From assembly GCA_964396165.1 (NCBI GenBank), contig CAYNEF010000009.1, positions 52,354-84,353 of the forward strand: a stretch of 32,000 bases of DNA, in the 5' to 3' direction. The position numbers were made by a program, and so were the translations under genes. Positions 4,489-24,985 of this stretch are shown here, piece by piece (the first letter of the stretch is position 1; the number at the start of each line of letters is the position of its first letter). The DNA comes from an uncultured Pseudobdellovibrionaceae bacterium. Lineage in GTDB: Bacteria; Bdellovibrionota; FAC87; UBA2466. Below the pieces are notes generated by a model. It was not told where the DNA came from. It did no database searches and worked only from the letters and a program-made list of their open reading frames with translations.

Positions 4489-6570
4489 ATGAGTGACGTC
4501 CTCGGTAACTCGATTACATACATTAAAGGAGTGGGCCCAAAGCTTGCTCAAGTGCTGCACAAAAAGGGAATCGACACGCTTGAGGATGCACTTTATTTTG
4601 TGCCGCGTCTTTATGAAGACAGAAGGCGCATTATCCCTATCGCTTCGCTTCAGCCCAATACTACAGCCACAATTTCTGGAAAAGTTGTCAGCGCAAAAGA
4701 AGTGGGATTTACGCGTTACCAGAAACGTTTTGAAGTAACGCTAGCTGATGCGACAGGACGTACCGTTCTTACCTGGTTTAGAGCGTATCCTAGTCTGAAA
4801 GAAGAGTTCAAAGTGGGAACTTCCTTTCTCGTGAATGGAGAAGTGAAGTTGTACCGCGGGCTTTCGCAGATCACCCATCCAGATTACGAAAAAATTGAAG
4901 AGTTTGTAGACGGAAAACCAAAGGCTTCGATTAATTTTGGGCGCATTGTTCCTGTTTATAGCGAGACCGAAGGCTTGCACCAGAAAACAATTCGCAAAAT
5001 CATGGGGGAAGTTGTCCGTACTTCCGTAAAAGAATTGCATGACGTCTTACCGGAAGAAATGCGTGCACGTCTGGAACTTCCCACACTCAGACAAAGTTTT
5101 GTGGATCTCCATTTTCCAAAAACATTGCCGGAAGAAGGGCTTCCGTTAGATGCCCTGAAAAGAATCATCTTTGAAGAGTTCTTCGTATTGCAACTTGGCT
5201 TAGGCTTAAGAAAAAGAGAAACGCAAAAGAAAACGGCGCCTGCGTTAGTAAATAAAAACGGTGCTTTGGAAAAGTATATTGCAGGCCTTCCTTTTTCTCT
5301 TACAGGAGATCAGAAAAAGGTAATCGAGCAGGTGAATCACGATATTGCTCGTCCGCTCATGATGACAAGACTTGTGCAAGGGGATGTGGGATCTGGAAAA
5401 ACAGCCGTGGCGTTTGCAGCTGTCTCTGTCACAGCAAGTTCTGGTTACCAAACTGCGATCATGGCACCCACGGAATTACTCGCCATTCAGCACGCAAAAA
5501 GTGCTGCGGCGTTATTGCCTGACTTAAAAGTTGCACTTCTTACGCATAGTACGGCTAAGGACAAAGAGCTTCACAAGACGATTCACTCAGGCGAAGTGAG
5601 TTTGGTGATTGGAACGCATGCTCTCTTTCAAGAAAACGTAAAGTTTAAAAAATTGGGTCTTGTGATTGTGGATGAACAGCACCGCTTTGGGGTAGAGCAA
5701 CGCGCGGATTTACTTAAAAAGAGCGAGAAAGAAAATGCGCATCTTTTAATGATGACGGCCACTCCGATACCGAGAACTCTTGCGCTGACACTCTATGGAG
5801 ATTTGGACTTAAGTATCATCCGGGAAAAACCGCAAAACCGCAAAAAAGTGAATACGACGATTTTAAAAGATCGGGACTTGCCACGCGTTTATCAAAAGAT
5901 CAACGAGACTGTCGCAAGGGGCGAACAGGTTTATATAATTTATCCTTTGATTGAGGCGTCTGAAAAATTGGAATTAAAATCAGCGACTGAGATGTACGAG
6001 AAGCTTCGAAAAGAAATATTTCCTACGCTGAAACTTGCTTTGTTGCACGGTAGGATGAAGGGACAGGAAAAAGAAGACATCTTAAAGGCATTTAAGAACC
6101 GCGAATTTGATATTTTAGTTTCTACTACGGTAATTGAAGTAGGGATCGATGTTCCCAATTCGACGTTAATGGTGATTGAACACCCTGAACGTCTGGGGTT
6201 ATCGCAGTTGCACCAGTTAAGAGGACGGGTGGGTCGTGGAGACAAGCAAAGTACGTGTTTACTTGTGGTGGATAAATTCGTTTTACCTCGTTTAAGAGTA
6301 ATGGAAACATCGGATGATGGCTTTGTGATCGCGGAAGAAGATTTAAAATTCCGTGGGCCAGGAGAGTTTTTGGGTACAAGACAAAGCGGTCTTCCTGGTT
6401 TCAGGGTAGGGCATATCTTAAGGGATGCATCCTTATTGGAACTAGCGCGAAGTGAAGCGGAAGCAATTCTTTTGAAAGATCCCACACTGGATTTAAAAGA
6501 AAATTCCGGCATTCGTAAAATGGTAGAAACCCGCTGGAAACAAAAAATTGAGAGACTTAGAGGAGGGTAA
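4489..6570 (+). CDS. recG: ATP-dependent DNA helicase RecG
   Basis: Helicase motifs GDVGSGKT, VIVDEQHRFG, MTATPIPRT and QLHQLRGRVGRG, with an N-terminal wedge/OB region. I prefer the ATG at 4489 (MSDVLGNS...) over the in-frame TTG at 4450 used by the ORF track. Confidence 0.93.
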   Translation: MSDVLGNSITYIKGVGPKLAQVLHKKGIDTLEDALYFVPRLYEDRRRIIPIASLQPNTTATISGKVVSAKEVGFTRYQKRFEVTLADATGRTVLTWFRAYPSLKEEFKVGTSFLVNGEVKLYRGLSQITHPDYEKIEEFVDGKPKASINFGRIVPVYSETEGLHQKTIRKIMGEVVRTSVKELHDVLPEEMRARLELPTLRQSFVDLHFPKTLPEEGLPLDALKRIIFEEFFVLQLGLGLRKRETQKKTAPALVNKNGALEKYIAGLPFSLTGDQKKVIEQVNHDIARPLMMTRLVQGDVGSGKTAVAFAAVSVTASSGYQTAIMAPTELLAIQHAKSAAALLPDLKVALLTHSTAKDKELHKTIHSGEVSLVIGTHALFQENVKFKKLGLVIVDEQHRFGVEQRADLLKKSEKENAHLLMMTATPIPRTLALTLYGDLDLSIIREKPQNRKKVNTTILKDRDLPRVYQKINETVARGEQVYIIYPLIEASEKLELKSATEMYEKLRKEIFPTLKLALLHGRMKGQEKEDILKAFKNREFDILVSTTVIEVGIDVPNSTLMVIEHPERLGLSQLHQLRGRVGRGDKQSTCLLVVDKFVLPRLRVMETSDDGFVIAEEDLKFRGPGEFLGTRQSGLPGFRVGHILRDASLLELARSEAEAILLKDPTLDLKENSGIRKMVETRWKQKIERLRGG

Positions 6571-6657
6571 TTAATTAGCATATTGTGGAAGAGGGGGTAA
6601 GCGCTCCAACCCCGAAGTCGCGTTACCCCCTCTTCCACAATATGCTAATTAATTACC
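6566..6657. repeat. hairpin A: perfect 35-bp inverted repeat (6566-6600 / 6623-6657) around a 22-nt loop
   Basis: Checked base by base: 35/35 Watson-Crick pairs. The left arm contains the recG stop codon (TAA 6568-6570). No T-tract follows. The loop GCGCTCCAACCCCGAAGTCGCG is the reverse complement of a sequence homologous to the loop of hairpin B. Confidence 0.9.
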
Positions 6658-6690
6658 GACAATCTAAGTATTGGGTTATTTGAGGAGTGG

Positions 6691-11193: not shown

Positions 11194-11271
11194 AACGGGT
11201 GGCACATGCATTTCTAGTGATGGCGCGCCAAGAGCGACAGCACTAGAAATGCGTGTGACAGGACCCGTGTT
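11194..11271 (+). repeat. structured element C1 (GGGTGGC...GACAGGACCCG family), plus-sense copy upstream of the HD-GYP gene
   Basis: Layout is AACGGGTGGC, 14 nt, TGATGGCGCGCCAAGAGCGACAGCA, 12 nt, GTGACAGGACCCGTGTT. A 17-bp stem (11203-11219 / 11241-11257) has one T-G pair. ACGGGT/ACCCGT can close the base. Confidence 0.75.
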
Positions 11272-13356: not shown

Positions 13357-13434
13357 AACACGGGTCCTGTCACCTGCGAATGGGATGCTGTCGCTCTTGG
13401 CGCGCCATCACCCCATCCACAGGCGCCACCCGTT
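13357..13434 (-). repeat. structured element C2, minus-sense copy downstream of the HD-GYP gene
   Basis: The reverse complement aligns without gaps to C1. All three conserved blocks are identical, both variable blocks differ, and the variable blocks are mutually complementary. All 3 stem mismatches are G-U on the minus strand. Confidence 0.75.
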
Positions 13435-13545
13435 CCCCGTTTTTTTCAATCCATAGTTCTAACGGAAAAAAAACAGTTCTATAAAGTCAGCGGAATGTAG
13501 CAGAGTGGTTCTATTAAACTGATTTATAAAATTTGTAAGTGAGAT

Positions 13546-13723
13546 CCTTTCAGGAAGAGGAGTGTGGGTGGCGCCTTCGTTAAAACCAGTGGCCCCGGGT
13601 AGTGATAAGCAAACTAGCAATGAAAACGAAACTTGCAGAAAGATCTCACAGCGAAGATCCAGTCCAAGGGGAGCATCTGGTTACCACGCAGGTGACAGGA
13701 CCCGCACTCCTCTTCCTGAAAGG
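13546..13723 (+). ncRNA. candidate structured RNA C3 (178 nt), a large member of the GGGTGGC...GACAGGACCCG family
   Basis: A 24-bp closing helix, CCTTTCAGGAAGAGGAGTGTGGGT (13546-13569) / ACCCGCACTCCTCTTCCTGAAAGG (13700-13723), has a single U-G pair on the plus strand. It shares GGGTGGCGCCT and CGCAGGTGACAGGACCCG with C2. Internal hairpins lie at about 13609-13636 and 13642-13659. Confidence 0.55.
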
Positions 13724-13860
13724 TTTGCAATAATCAATACCCTATACAATTTTTTTCTCACACAAGTACTCTACGCAATGAGCAATCAAGTACTTAAAAT
13801 ATTCCCAAGCACACCTGGCATTTTTTTCCCGCACGAGAGGGAAATTCTTGCCGATCTTTC

Positions 13861-14014: not shown

Positions 14015-15373
14015 ATGAATCGCGTTCTTATTTATGAACCTGACGTTGAATTAGGTACCAGATGCAAAGAATTACTGGAACAAAACAATCTGTGGGTCAT
14101 ACACGAGTGGGACCTTAATAACGCCTTATCGTTATACGCAAAACAGTTATTTCATGTTTGTGTTTGGCGCTGCGATACAGAAGACGATTTGAAAATAATT
14201 CCCACGTTGAGAAATACGCGTATCGAAGCGGGAATTATTATCAGCAGCAATAAAACCGATTCTGATTTCATCGTGAAGACAATGCGCGAAGGCGGTTCTC
14301 ACTATTGGAATAGACAGAGTGAGCTAACGAAACTTCAATCAGCTGTAAAAGAAACTCTTTCTAAAATCGTGGATGATACGGAAACCATCGATTTTACCTT
14401 TCCGTTTCAGGAATTTATTGGAAGACATCCCAAAATCATCGATATTTTTCAAACTATCAATAGCATTAAAGATACGGATTCTACCGTACTCATTACGGGT
14501 GAAAGCGGAACAGGGAAAGAAGTTGTTGCTTCTGCAATCCACAAGCTAAGCCCTCGTGGTAGATCGCAAATGGTGGCAATCAATTGCGGCGCCATTCCCG
14601 GAAGTTTGATTGAAAGTGAACTATTCGGTCATATGAAGGGCGCTTTTACAGGCGCAACTCATAATAGAATGGGACGATTTCAGATGGCAGGAAGTGGAAC
14701 GTTGTTTCTGGATGAAATAACGGATCTTCCTCTTGATTTGCAGGCTAAATTACTACGCGCCATACAAAACAAAACATTTGAGCCCGTTGGCAGTGCTGTC
14801 AGTCTCAATCTCGAAGCTCGCATTATTGCAGCGACAAACAAAGACTTGGAAATCGCTGTCGAAGACAAAAAATTCCGTGAAGATCTGTTCTACCGACTGA
14901 ATGTAATTCCCATTTATATTCCGCCTTTGAGAAATAGAAAATCGGATATTCCGCTTCTTGTGAAATCATTCATGGATAAGTTCAGCAAAGAACATAACAA
15001 GGTCTGTGAAGGAATATCCCAGGACGCCATGAGAACCTTAATGGAATACCAATGGCCGGGTAACGTAAGAGAGTTAGAAAACCTCATCGAACGAGTCATT
15101 GTACTGAAGAGAAGCGTCGGTGCAATCGAATTGAAAGACTTGCCCGTGCATTACTTTAAAAACGTCAGAATGGATCGGTATGTCGCAAATGTGGAGCTTC
15201 CAGACGAAGGTTTGGATTTCAACAATGCGGTAGATGAATTCGAAAACGAATTGATCATTCAGGCTTTACAGAAAACGGATGGCAACCGCAATAAAGCCGC
15301 ATCCTTGTTGAATTTGAATAGAACAACGCTTGTGGAGAAATTGAAGAGAAAGGGAATCAGATTGGCTGCTTAA
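14015..15373 (+). CDS. sigma-54-dependent transcriptional activator (NtrC family) with a divergent receiver domain
   Basis: AAA+ motifs GESGTGKE, GAFTGA and DEITDL, with a C-terminal Fis-type HTH (NRNKAASLLNLNRTTLVEKLKR). The ATG at 14015 is preceded by AAGGAG, so it is preferred over the GTG at 13991. Confidence 0.9.
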   Translation: MNRVLIYEPDVELGTRCKELLEQNNLWVIHEWDLNNALSLYAKQLFHVCVWRCDTEDDLKIIPTLRNTRIEAGIIISSNKTDSDFIVKTMREGGSHYWNRQSELTKLQSAVKETLSKIVDDTETIDFTFPFQEFIGRHPKIIDIFQTINSIKDTDSTVLITGESGTGKEVVASAIHKLSPRGRSQMVAINCGAIPGSLIESELFGHMKGAFTGATHNRMGRFQMAGSGTLFLDEITDLPLDLQAKLLRAIQNKTFEPVGSAVSLNLEARIIAATNKDLEIAVEDKKFREDLFYRLNVIPIYIPPLRNRKSDIPLLVKSFMDKFSKEHNKVCEGISQDAMRTLMEYQWPGNVRELENLIERVIVLKRSVGAIELKDLPVHYFKNVRMDRYVANVELPDEGLDFNNAVDEFENELIIQALQKTDGNRNKAASLLNLNRTTLVEKLKRKGIRLAA

Positions 15374-20820: not shown

Positions 20821-21761
20821 CAAATTTGTATTTTCAAAACAGGCTTTTAGTAGTTGCTGACGAGAGCATGCAAAAGACCCTGAATCTTGCCCTAAAAGCT
20901 GCGCAAAGCGCGCTGCCTGTTTTGATTTCGGGTGAAAGTGGAACGGGGAAAGAACTGATAGCACGTTTCATCCACGAAAAAGGCGCCCGCTCTGGTGGTC
21001 CATTTGTTTCGGTGAACTGTGCGGCCCTGCCTGAAACGCTAATTGAGTCAGAACTTTTTGGATATGAACGAGGCGCTTTCACTGGTGCTATAGGACAACG
21101 AATTGGTAAGTTTGAACGTGCAAATGGTGGAACATTGTTAATGGATGAAGTCAGCGAAATGCCCTATGGACTTCAAGCAAAGCTTTTGCGCGTTTTGCAA
21201 GAAGGCGAGATAGACAGACTAGGCTCGCGCGACACAATAGGAATAGATTGTAGAATTATAGCCACTACAAATCGCGATCCCATTCAGATGATTGTGGAAG
21301 AGAGATTTAGAGAAGATTTGTACTATCGGTTGAATGTGATACGTATTGAATGCGTTCCGTTAAGAAAAAGGCCTATTGCCATTATTAAGCTAGCCCACGA
21401 ATTTATCAAGCAAGCGTGTTTAAGAGACAGAAAAGACGAAGTTTACTTGTCCGAACAGTCCATTAAAAAATTGGTGGAATATGATTGGCCAGGCAATATC
21501 CGGGAGCTTCAGAATGTAATGGAGCGAGCGATTTTACTTACAGATGGCAATTTAATCGAACAGGATAACCTGCAATTCATGGATCAGTTAAGAAGAAGAC
21601 CAGAGGCAGTCGAGTCGTCTCTTCTCTCAGACTTAGAACAGACACATATTTTGAAAGTTCTCGAAATGAGTCAGGGAAACAGATCCAATGCGGCAAAAAC
21701 TTTAGGAATTAGCGTGCGAACTTTACGTAATAAACTAAAAGAATATAGCGCGGCAGGTTAG
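20817..21761 (+). CDS. sigma-54-dependent activator with only AAA+ and HTH domains (PspF-like architecture)
   Basis: 314 aa. The AAA+ core starts about 12 residues from the N-terminus (…VLISGESGTGKE, GAFTGA, MDEVSEM). C-terminal Fis-type HTH (NRSNAAKTLGISVRTLRNKLKEY). No receiver, GAF, PAS or V4R module. Confidence 0.9.
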   Translation: MTNLYFQNRLLVVADESMQKTLNLALKAAQSALPVLISGESGTGKELIARFIHEKGARSGGPFVSVNCAALPETLIESELFGYERGAFTGAIGQRIGKFERANGGTLLMDEVSEMPYGLQAKLLRVLQEGEIDRLGSRDTIGIDCRIIATTNRDPIQMIVEERFREDLYYRLNVIRIECVPLRKRPIAIIKLAHEFIKQACLRDRKDEVYLSEQSIKKLVEYDWPGNIRELQNVMERAILLTDGNLIEQDNLQFMDQLRRRPEAVESSLLSDLEQTHILKVLEMSQGNRSNAAKTLGISVRTLRNKLKEYSAAG

Positions 21762-22724: not shown

Positions 22725-23027
22725 ATGAAAATTGATTCCATAGATTTACTCCAAAAGATAAATCCCAGTCCTACGATGGACGGTGCGGATAAACAGGTTA
22801 GTGGAGGTGAAAGTTTTTCCTCTTATCTGGGCAGATCCATTAACGACGTAAATGATTTGTTAAAGGCGTCTGATTCTGTCACCAATGATTTGGCAACGGG
22901 AAAAGTAGAAAATTTACATGATGCGATGATCGGTTTTGAAAAAGCCGAAACAGCTTTTAAGCTCCTCGTGCAAGTAAGAAATAAAGCACTAGAGGCTTAC
23001 CACGAAGTCATGCGTATGCAAGTGTGA
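22725..23027 (+). CDS. fliE: flagellar hook-basal body complex protein FliE
   Basis: 100 aa with the FliE C-terminus ...AETAFKLLVQVRNKALEAYHEVMRMQV. Confidence 0.88.
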   Translation: MKIDSIDLLQKINPSPTMDGADKQVSGGESFSSYLGRSINDVNDLLKASDSVTNDLATGKVENLHDAMIGFEKAETAFKLLVQVRNKALEAYHEVMRMQV

Positions 23028-23101
23028 TAACACATAAATAACTTCTGAATAAAATCGGTTAAACAAGAACAACAAATAATTGCGATTAAGAATTTAATAG
23101 C

Positions 23102-23192
23102 AATTAAAAGGTGGGGATTCCAGGCGGAGTAGTTAATGCGACTGGGGTTCGGAGCACTTAACTACTCCGCCTGGAATCTCCGCCTTTTAATT
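23102..23192 (+). repeat. hairpin B: 35-bp inverted repeat (23102-23136 / 23158-23192) around a 21-nt loop, in the fliE-fliF gap
   Basis: 33 Watson-Crick pairs plus 2 positions that are G-U only on the plus strand (23112/23182 and 23115/23179). The loop TGCGACTGGGGTTCGGAGCAC is homologous to the reverse complement of the hairpin A loop. No T-tract follows. Confidence 0.9.
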
Positions 23193-23221
23193 CTCAATAT
23201 TAACTCGAAAGGGTTTTGACT

Positions 23222-24985
23222 ATGAATGACAAGTTAAGCCAGTACTGGCGAGATCTTAAAGATTATCTCGCTAAGTTTTCCTATAGGAAGAAAGTCCTTA
23301 TGGGATCCTTGGCTGGTCTTGTCGTGGTTGCGGGTATCGCACTCGTCGTAGCCTTGCAACACGATCCCCAACAAGTCCTTTATTCGGGTTTACAAAACGA
23401 AGATGCTAAAGCAGTAGCAAAAAAACTAGGCGAATTAAATATTCCCTACACGATTACCGAAGATCACTCCACCATTTCTGTTCCTGCGAGCCAAGTACAC
23501 CGTTCCCGTATGGAATTGGCTAAAGACGGATTGCCAGGTCAGGATGTAGTGGGGTTTGAAAAATTCGATGGCTCTACTCTAGGGATGTCGAGCTATGTGC
23601 AACGCATTCAGTACGTCCGCGCCGTACAAGGGGAATTAACTAGAAGTATTCAGCGTATCAGTGCAGTTAAAACAGCCCGAGTACACATCAGCGTACCACC
23701 TAAGAAAAATTTCATGGAAGAAGAAGATCCGCCAAAGGCTTCTGTGATATTGGAACTGAAACCCGGACAAACATTGGCAAAATCAGAGACAACCGGGATC
23801 GCGCATTTGGTTGCAAGTGCAGTAGAAGGATTAAAAGTAAATCAGATTACGATTGTCGATACCAAAGGAAATTTTTTACACCGTCCTGAAGACGGTTCGT
23901 CTCAAGCGGCATTAACAGGAGCTCTTCTAGAGCAACAACGCGGGCTGGAAAAAGAGTACGAAAGAAGCATTGAAGATATATTGTCTCCGGTTGTAGGTTT
24001 TGGAAAAGTACGCGCTAAAGTAACCGTAGAAATAGATCCCTCCAGAAGCAATACCACGGAAGAAACATTTGAAGGAGACAAAGCTGTTCCCAGAAGCGTT
24101 GTGAAGAACGACGAACAGGTTGTCGGCCAAAGACCCAATCCTATCGGAATTCCTGGTAGCAGGTCTAATTTGCCGGGTACGGAAGTCAATAATCCCGGCA
24201 TACCGATGGCTACTAACAATAGTGAAAAGAATACCAGTACGACTAATTTCGCTATCCCCAGAAAAGTACAAGTCACAGACAAACCGTCCGGCAGTATCAA
24301 GCGTTTAACTGTTGCTGTAGTGGTTGATGGACATTATGCCAAAGCACAAGGCGCAGATAAAGAAACGTTTACTCCACGTAGCGAAGAAGAATTAAAACGA
24401 TTGCAGGACTTAGTAGCAAATGCAGTTGGTTACGATACCCAGAGACGTGACAGTATTACTGTCAGCTCATTGCCCTTCCAGATACCAGAAGTCATACCTG
24501 AAGAAGAAGTTCCAAAAAGTCCGTGGGATCTCAAAGAACTCCAGAAACACGGCGTAAGAAATGGATTTATCGCAATCACTATTCTTCTCTTCTTCTTCCT
24601 TGTCTTGCGTCCATTCTTGAAATGGCTCACGCAGACAGAAATCAGAAAAACAGTTAGCGTTGTACCCGATGCTCTTCCACGCAAAGTAACTGAAGTGGAA
24701 CAATTGGTACAGGCTGAAAAAATAGCGGACAAGATGGAGTCCGAAAGAAAGATAAGCGAGCTCACGAAAGCACATGAGCAAGCACAGAGTGAACTTATGG
24801 CATTAACCAAAGCAAATGAAGAGGCACTGCTTTCTGAAAATCCGGAAAAAGTAGAAGGCGAAAAACTGAAGAATAAGATTATTGAGCTCATCAATAATTC
24901 ACCCAAAAAGGGTTTCCGGGTCATTCAAGATTGGCTGGATCAAGAAGACACCGTGCCACTACCTCAAACAGGAGAGGGTTCGTAA
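23222..24985 (+). CDS. fliF: flagellar MS-ring protein FliF
   Basis: N-terminal TM segment, the family segment YVRAVQGELTRSIQRISAVKTARVHISVP, a second TM segment, and a charged C-terminus. The ATG at 23222 is preferred to the TTG at 23216. Confidence 0.92.
   Translation: MNDKLSQYWRDLKDYLAKFSYRKKVLMGSLAGLVVVAGIALVVALQHDPQQVLYSGLQNEDAKAVAKKLGELNIPYTITEDHSTISVPASQVHRSRMELAKDGLPGQDVVGFEKFDGSTLGMSSYVQRIQYVRAVQGELTRSIQRISAVKTARVHISVPPKKNFMEEEDPPKASVILELKPGQTLAKSETTGIAHLVASAVEGLKVNQITIVDTKGNFLHRPEDGSSQAALTGALLEQQRGLEKEYERSIEDILSPVVGFGKVRAKVTVEIDPSRSNTTEETFEGDKAVPRSVVKNDEQVVGQRPNPIGIPGSRSNLPGTEVNNPGIPMATNNSEKNTSTTNFAIPRKVQVTDKPSGSIKRLTVAVVVDGHYAKAQGADKETFTPRSEEELKRLQDLVANAVGYDTQRRDSITVSSLPFQIPEVIPEEEVPKSPWDLKELQKHGVRNGFIAITILLFFFLVLRPFLKWLTQTEIRKTVSVVPDALPRKVTEVEQLVQAEKIADKMESERKISELTKAHEQAQSELMALTKANEEALLSENPEKVEGEKLKNKIIELINNSPKKGFRVIQDWLDQEDTVPLPQTGEGS

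Follow-up and report, generated by a model that had tools for sequence, protein, structure and literature searches.

This locus raises the question of why a hairpin with a 35-bp stem should sit between fliE and fliF, within the flagellar operon of an uncultured Pseudobdellovibrionaceae bacterium. The window analysed is a stretch of 32,000 nt (contig CAYNEF010000009.1 of assembly GCA_964396165.1, positions 52,354 to 84,353 of the forward strand), and the hairpin occupies its positions 23102-23192. An initial annotation, made from the window alone, had taken the G-U pairs of the stem as an argument for function at the RNA level, and had also allowed that the hairpin might be a selfish element tolerated at that position. 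It is the latter reading which is favoured here, by the finding of a dispersed family of such hairpins and by the absence of the element from the same spacer in relatives. The hairpin is probably an inserted copy of a genus-restricted, gene-less palindromic repeat, with arms that would be recopied at the DNA level, an apex that would be recognised, and any effect on the mRNA a by-product.

Direct reading of the sequence confirmed the hairpin as first described, with arms of 35 nt and a loop of 21 nt; the window repeat scan gives the inverted repeat as 94% complementary. Its parts are as follows.

23102-23136, plus strand: the 5' arm of the fliE-fliF copy, rich in G and poor in C; its sequence is unique in the genome save for the partner arm.
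23137-23157, plus strand: the conserved apex ("loop") of 21 nt, with the apex-sense orientation on the plus strand.
23158-23192, plus strand: the 3' arm of the fliE-fliF copy, pairing with the 5' arm through 33 Watson-Crick and two G.U pairs.

The two exceptions, T23112.G23182 and G23115.T23179, are wobble pairs on the plus strand and A.C mismatches on the minus strand, also as first described. Folding places T23137-A23156, G23138-C23155 and C23139-G23154 as a continuation of the stem inside the "loop", with C23157 bulged, and the asymmetric core of the apex in this copy is GACT..GGGGTTCGGA. The plus strand of the 194-nt spacer containing the hairpin folds at -75.2 kcal/mol, compared to -34.6 +/- 3.6 kcal/mol for dinucleotide shuffles (z = -11.1; 0 of 200 shuffles were as good), and the minus strand at -66.8 kcal/mol. 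The hairpin is not an assembly artefact, since an independent Logan assembly of the region has the identical sequence and a 151-nt contig from another study's RNA library spans 23011-23161 at 100% identity. That contig, which runs from fliE into the loop, is also the sole, and weak, sign of read-through transcription. A small open reading frame starting from an ATG in the loop (23137) was dismissed, as that ATG is not kept in the commonest apex type of the family described next.

A whole-genome search found the 25-nt loop by itself on another contig. A structural hairpin scan across the full set of 140 contigs and a subsequent anchored search defined a family of 22 intact copies, one copy cut by an assembly gap (C5:30337) and one degenerate copy (on C51), spread over 19 contigs. 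Every copy is intergenic, and the flanking genes may be tandem, convergent or divergent. All share an asymmetric apex, GCGAC..GGGGTT..GGAGC, in which the apex alignment shows the blocks GCGAC and GA.C to be invariant. Sequence conservation is confined to this apex and the six adjacent pairs, GGGGAA/TTCCCC. The arms range from 29 to 41 bp and are about 95% Watson-Crick paired; between copies the outer arms have a mean pairwise identity of 0.29, compared to 0.27 for shuffled arms. RNAalifold gives 34 pairs for the family, of which 30 carry double compensatory changes. The first pair inside the "loop" covaries as well (C:G in 11 copies, U:A in seven), so the truly unpaired, asymmetric part is about 15 nt.

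With arms delimited by Watson-Crick extension only, the 22 copies hold 726 Watson-Crick pairs, 20 G.U, seven A.C and 10 transversion mismatches, the G.U share being 2.6% of all pairs. Eight copies have perfect stems of 30-38 bp, and copy C35b has 38/38 pairs despite a diverged apex. The composition of the 5' arm (G 36%, C 10%, versus about 21% each genome-wide) is unlike that of intergenic DNA. The assembly contains many scaffold gaps of exactly 100 N (for example C5:30364-30463 and C9:43403-43502), and at least one, that on C5, begins inside a family hairpin. This suggests that the palindromes break short-read assembly and that copy number is underestimated. Two copies on C49 (2006-2093 and 2242-2337) share a single intergenic region between convergent genes, separated by about 150 nt; their arms are unrelated and their apices are oppositely oriented.

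Searching with a covariance model of the 22 copies gave 23 matches in this genome (labelled G000), exactly one in a genome of the same genus (G001), and none in a further 36 genomes of the order or among 150 sampled across the phylum. Exact scans for the loop motif returned 12 matches in a named genome collection and 16 in a metagenome collection, none with a flanking palindrome; they were rejected as family members, the palindrome being absent and the 12 matches comparing with a chance expectation of about nine. The G001 copy has 37-nt arms with one G.U pair and a related apex, and lies between two tandem genes. In our genome the orthologues of those genes are separated by an empty, AT-rich spacer of 25 nt. 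Conversely, the fliE-fliF spacer of G001 is 56 nt long and without the element. Because each species is empty at the site filled in the other, the elements arrived after the species split, at different places. Nine further relatives have element-free fliE-fliF spacers of 4-66 nt, and altogether the element was found in this spacer in 0 of 11 relatives with the same gene order. Comparison of the spacer in relatives had been proposed at the outset as a check, and its outcome, absence from the congener and from 10 others, favours the insertion reading. No target-site duplications, and no conserved or shared tail, were found at the family copies.

The flagellar context of the insertion is as follows.

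22725-23027, plus strand: fliE, the upstream gene (PF02049, E = 5e-28).
23028-23221, plus strand: the fliE-fliF spacer, 194 nt, versus 4-66 nt in 10 of 11 relatives.
23222-24985, plus strand: fliF, the downstream gene; an AAAGGG ribosome-binding site of its own lies at 23209-23214, ahead of the ATG at 23222.

Pfam identifies the flanking genes as FlgB, FlgC and FliE, then FliF and FliG. The spacer is indeed the sole sizeable gap, no other exceeding about 35 nt in the flgB...fliG... gene run. Given its length here and in the relatives, roughly 50-100 nt of extra non-hairpin sequence must be present too. In a genome of another genus (G008; locus L026 on G008:C115, about positions 1088-1250 of the locus) the fliE-fliF spacer is about 140-160 nt long and is filled by a different repeat, with units such as ctcctagggctggtc and gcgaagcggacgagccc occurring twice each; the same spacer has thus been independently invaded by another element.

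The window holds a second copy, hairpin A, downstream of recG.

6566-6657, minus strand (apex-sense): hairpin A, with a 35/35-bp stem and a 22-nt apex.
6658-6690, plus strand: the inserted tail of about 35 nt after hairpin A, carrying the GAGGAG ribosome-binding site of the downstream short-chain dehydrogenase/reductase (SDR) gene.

The likeness of the two hairpins noted previously holds: the stems are of equal length and the loop of hairpin A is homologous to that of the fliE-fliF copy, in the opposite orientation. In G001 and two other relatives, G002 and G004, recG ends with a stop codon that overlaps or directly adjoins the next gene's start codon (G001 and G002 have a TAATG/TGATG overlap at the recG-SDR junction), ie the ancestral spacer was 0-3 nt. 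All of the approximately 120 nt now at this site, hairpin A and tail together, is therefore insertion. The insertion disrupted an ancestral translational coupling of recG and the SDR gene, and the tail now supplies the ribosome-binding site. The outermost 5 bp of hairpin A (6566-6570, GGTAA) are the native end of recG. The inserted tail bears a weak resemblance to the recG end, too weak to call, which could reflect a diverged duplication or convergence.

The few imperfect pairs show a polarity. Read on the apex-sense strand, the mismatches are 20 G.U versus seven A.C (p = 0.019), and read on the mRNA-sense strand in tandem contexts they are seven G.U versus six A.C. The G.U excess thus follows apex orientation and not transcription. 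In tandem contexts the apex points with transcription in about six cases and against it in five. By RNA parameters the hairpin of the apex-sense strand is more stable than that of the other strand in 20 of 22 copies, and by DNA parameters in 18 of 22; the apex by itself is more stable in the sense orientation in all 22. Such polarity implies a strand-specific single-stranded form and, since orientation is random relative to genes, single-stranded DNA is likelier than mRNA. Recognition by strand-specific HUH/Y1 enzymes would fit this polarity. The argument for RNA-level function from plus-strand G-U pairs, put forward in the initial annotation, fails when the family as a whole is considered, and one copy with strand-specific G-U pairs says little for RNA function.

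These results bear on the proposal that the hairpin is a dedicated cis-regulatory RNA of the flagellar operon, which would set the FliE:FliF ratio or sequester a ribosome-binding site. Its location within the operon, the two G-U pairs on the mRNA strand, the Shine-Dalgarno-like run in the left arm and the weak sign of read-through transcription all lend it something. The Shine-Dalgarno-like run is present as originally stated; what falls away is its regulatory reading, because the run is a by-product of the G-rich 5' arm, a trait of the whole family, no start codon is suitably spaced from it, and fliF is provided with an AAAGGG of its own. Nor does a device dedicated to FliE/FliF stoichiometry agree with some 23 dispersed copies at unrelated loci, with a spacer free of the element in the 11 relatives of the same gene order, or with a G-U bias that does not track the mRNA strand. 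We regard such a dedicated RNA as highly improbable. A scan of the window with Rfam gave nothing at gathering thresholds; in permissive mode the sole matches, present on both strands and far under threshold, were to generic models of miRNA-precursor hairpins. An intrinsic (Rho-independent) terminator has a short GC-rich stem with a U-tract immediately after it. As reported initially, no T-tract follows the fliE-fliF hairpin, and the terminator scan makes no call there. The hairpin was rejected as a terminator on these grounds, together with its 35-bp stem and the occurrence of family copies between divergent genes.

How the arms come to be near-perfect yet unrelated between copies is best approached through the pairs themselves. 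In the variable part of the arms, pairs with G in the 5' arm and C in the 3' arm outnumber the reverse by 200:70 (p = 1e-15; 19 of 22 copies). Monttinen & Loytynoja (2022, PMC8794818) argue that a stem undergoing intrastrand template switching is corrected to its 5' base, with enrichment of G-C and U-A pairs. The 200:70 excess agrees strongly with that prediction, and for the U-A half the agreement is in direction only. The palindromes also reach into native coding bases at their tips, by 5 bp at recG (GGTAA), by 6 bp at C35b (CTGTAA, Leu and stop, conserved in G004) and by 3 bp at C81 (the TAA stop). With native coding bases included in one tip, the opposite arm ends in a copied reverse complement of host bases, which can only have arisen in place, at the DNA level. 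Perfect stems, pair asymmetry and coding-base tips together exceed what mere selection for pairing gives. The asymmetry and the native-base tips speak for intrastrand template switching, whereby one arm is copied from the other as DNA.

This flank-derived part is limited to the outermost 3-6 bp. Derivation of the bulk of the arm from the target was rejected: the empty sites are rich in A and T and show no relation to the arms, recG and its neighbour originally had no spacer between them, and the arms differ in composition from intergenic DNA. An origin as copies or antisense of sequence elsewhere in the genome was rejected too, no match exceeding 16 nt, and the two window copies, of the 22, gave no blastn match as captured phage or plasmid DNA. 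Between copies C17 and C33 arm identity is 65%; there are about 12 differences, each with a compensating change in the partner arm, against a single change in the apex. From this homology, and from the lack of matches elsewhere, it follows that the arms are part of the element and change much faster than the apex while remaining complementary.

The course of events we propose is the following. After the split from the sister species the repeat would have been inserted into the fliE-fliF spacer. The apex (about 15-22 nt) and the GGGGAA/TTCCCC pairs would be the only parts constrained in sequence, the apex as a putative one-strand recognition site for a mobilising or binding protein, and the arms of 29-41 bp would need only to pair. 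Intrastrand template switching, or snap-back synthesis, would re-copy one arm from its partner, so that near-perfect palindromes are kept and slightly extended; such recopying would let the arm sequence drift or jump while remaining complementary. In the flagellar mRNA the element would form a 35-bp duplex, a putative RNase III substrate or 3'-end stabiliser, which would be a tolerated by-product and not the reason for its presence. Any effect on the flagellar mRNA, RNase III cleavage for example, is probably incidental.

Several observations weigh against this account. Mobility is deduced from a between-species comparison at about 73% nucleotide identity, with no near-identical filled/empty pair of strains, and the whole case is built on one metagenome-assembled genome (92.6% complete, 4% contamination) and one congener. 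Among contigs from four other runs none bridged either window hairpin and there were no joints, so that no filled/empty polymorphism was seen. The 5'T:3'A versus 5'A:3'T comparison is 176:159, not significant and in the expected direction only. There is a single clearly homologous pair of arms, C17/C33. When the flanks of the 12 genes for Y1 transposases in this genome, described below, were compared with the family core, none was above background, and there is no linked transposase. Finally, conservation of the apex in every copy could also reflect in-place selection for a host function.

That last point leads to a wider alternative, in which the hairpins serve the host as functional RNA or DNA sites, a host protein binding the apex and the duplex doing the work, and are kept by selection in place. 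Roles proposed for them are an RNase III site, an mRNA 3'-end protector, a bidirectional transcription barrier and a nucleoid-protein site. It would account for an apex kept in all copies over saturated arms, for the intergenic position of every copy, for the favoured apex-sense strand, and for the outer arms in about half of the copies, which are A-rich in the 5' arm and T-rich in the 3' arm and so resemble terminators; the RNA-library contig extending from fliE into the loop is also in its favour. It does not explain why the apex takes no preferred direction relative to transcription (about 6:5), with copies between divergent genes too, or why the sister species has a single copy, other genomes none, and the two species no sites in common. 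Selection on RNA also leaves unexplained perfect stems of 30-38 bp with 2.6% G.U, and tips that enter coding flanks. On balance we think host service unlikely as the reason for the family.

A different alternative accepts mobility and has the arms rebuilt at each transposition: a single strand of the C-poor 5' arm plus apex would be the intermediate, the mini-hairpin of the apex would prime synthesis of the 3' arm, and an error-prone step would randomise the arm. Arm mismatches within copies are few (about 2.4% per nt; transitions:transversions 27:10) and apex variation is small, while arms between copies are saturated. The C17/C33 pair differs by eight transversions and four transitions, which is a different spectrum, although this comparison has n = 1 pair. 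On the sense strand G is abundant and C scarce in both the 5' arm and the apex, and run-on copying would carry palindrome tips into the native flank, as observed. Set against this, no polymerase or reverse transcriptase candidate was found, the strand bearing the tip copy is not consistently apex-sense, and in-place template switching with selection on the apex covers the same data without a new enzyme. Regeneration at each transposition thus seems distinctly unlikely, and in-place renewal of the arms by template switching is preferred.

A broader claim, which we hold to be doubtful though worth stating, is that the family represents an undescribed class of bacterial replicator in which a tip of about 20 nt is heritable and the arms, approximately three quarters of the element, are regenerated by tip-primed or tip-nucleated fold-back copying. 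If true, it would explain both the perfect, copy-specific stems and the tips that enter host genes, whether copying occurs during transposition or continuously in place.

Full-text literature searches gave no description of a bacterial repeat with a conserved apex and free arms. In REPINs, conservation lies in the outer repetitive extragenic palindromic (REP) ends and variation in the inner spacer, and compensatory changes occur (Bertels & Rainey 2011, PMC3116915). Our family resembles REP/REPIN elements and their associated tyrosine transposases (RAYTs) in being short, gene-less, intergenic and hairpin-forming, in numbering tens of copies, in its restriction to a lineage and in lacking target-site duplications. 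Compensatory changes within the hairpin, strand polarity and the many Y1/HUH genes of the present host are further likenesses. It differs in that the layout is inverted, the inner apex being conserved and the outer arms unrelated between copies, and in that no element-flanked cognate RAYT was found in G000. REPINs are the nearest known kind in lifestyle, with the layout reversed. Miniature inverted-repeat transposable elements (MITEs) are likewise small, non-autonomous, palindromic, intergenic and multi-copy, but have conserved terminal inverted repeats and target-site duplications, neither of which is found here. Template-switch mutagenesis (PMC8794818) explains compensatory changes that arise several at a time, stems that are perfect or extended, and more G-C than C-G pairs, all of which the family shows. 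In that system the stems are those of rRNA and miRNA, of 2-10 bp, whereas here a dispersed family has arms of 30-40 bp around a conserved apex, and the U-A excess that is predicted falls short of significance.

Two other kinds of element were rejected. Integron attC sites are conserved at their ends, in the R''/R' core sites (GTTRRRY), and variable in the centre, and their stems are imperfect, with extrahelical bases; here the ends are unconserved, the stems near-perfect and the centre conserved, no integrase search having been made. A retron, or other hairpin DNA made by reverse transcriptase, was dismissed on finding no PF00078 match in G000 or G001 (assemblies 91-93% complete).

For annotation, the family means that long perfect hairpins in operons of this lineage are not to be taken as bespoke riboregulators. 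For genome evolution it offers a natural case of 30-40-bp palindromes kept perfect, skewed to 5'G:3'C and extended into neighbouring genes, which is the predicted signature of intrastrand template switching, here on a dispersed bacterial repeat. For mobile DNA, its conserved apex and free arms are the inverse of the layout of REPINs and MITEs; if this layout recurs across several phyla, it may reflect an unrecognised mechanism of mobilisation or maintenance.

Genes for Y1 transposases (PF01797; Y1_Tnp, IS200/RAYT-type) number 12 in G000 and eight in G001. RAYTs are typically single-copy, and 12 such genes in a genome of 3.8 Mb is unusually many. Those of G000 are at the following places.

C7:62981-63700, C24:21174, C20:43304, C21:35527, C15:8731 and C61:14417.
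C48:26352, C6:41681, C10:46397, C48:4477, C86:3452 and C15:58752.

The Y1 gene nearest to the family is 2.2 kb from the copy on C6. A 12-nt match to the family core, 680 nt from the Y1 gene on C86, was judged to be chance. Several of the Y1 genes are flanked by other hairpin repeat families of G000. A second palindromic family, also abundant, follows the classical REP/REPIN-like layout, its arms (aaaaggtacggcattcctttcgtgaat) being conserved and its loops variable, and a third is built on gtcattgcgag...ggcaatccc. Examples of second- or third-family loci are C5:12532-12630, C13:20171-20263, C15:60462-60557 and C79:2288-4297, and some copies adjoin Y1 transposase genes (C15:8731-9285 and C15:58752-59297).

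The window itself contains further long inverted repeats of other hairpin families: 78-nt arms at 11194-11271 and 13357-13434 bracket a gene, and a hairpin with 39-nt arms lies at 13531-13738. Upstream of the flagellar cluster are two genes for sigma-54-type enhancer-binding proteins, which share a Walker A region (14492-14542 and 20925-20975); the shared segment is the GESGTGKE-coding repeat D2.
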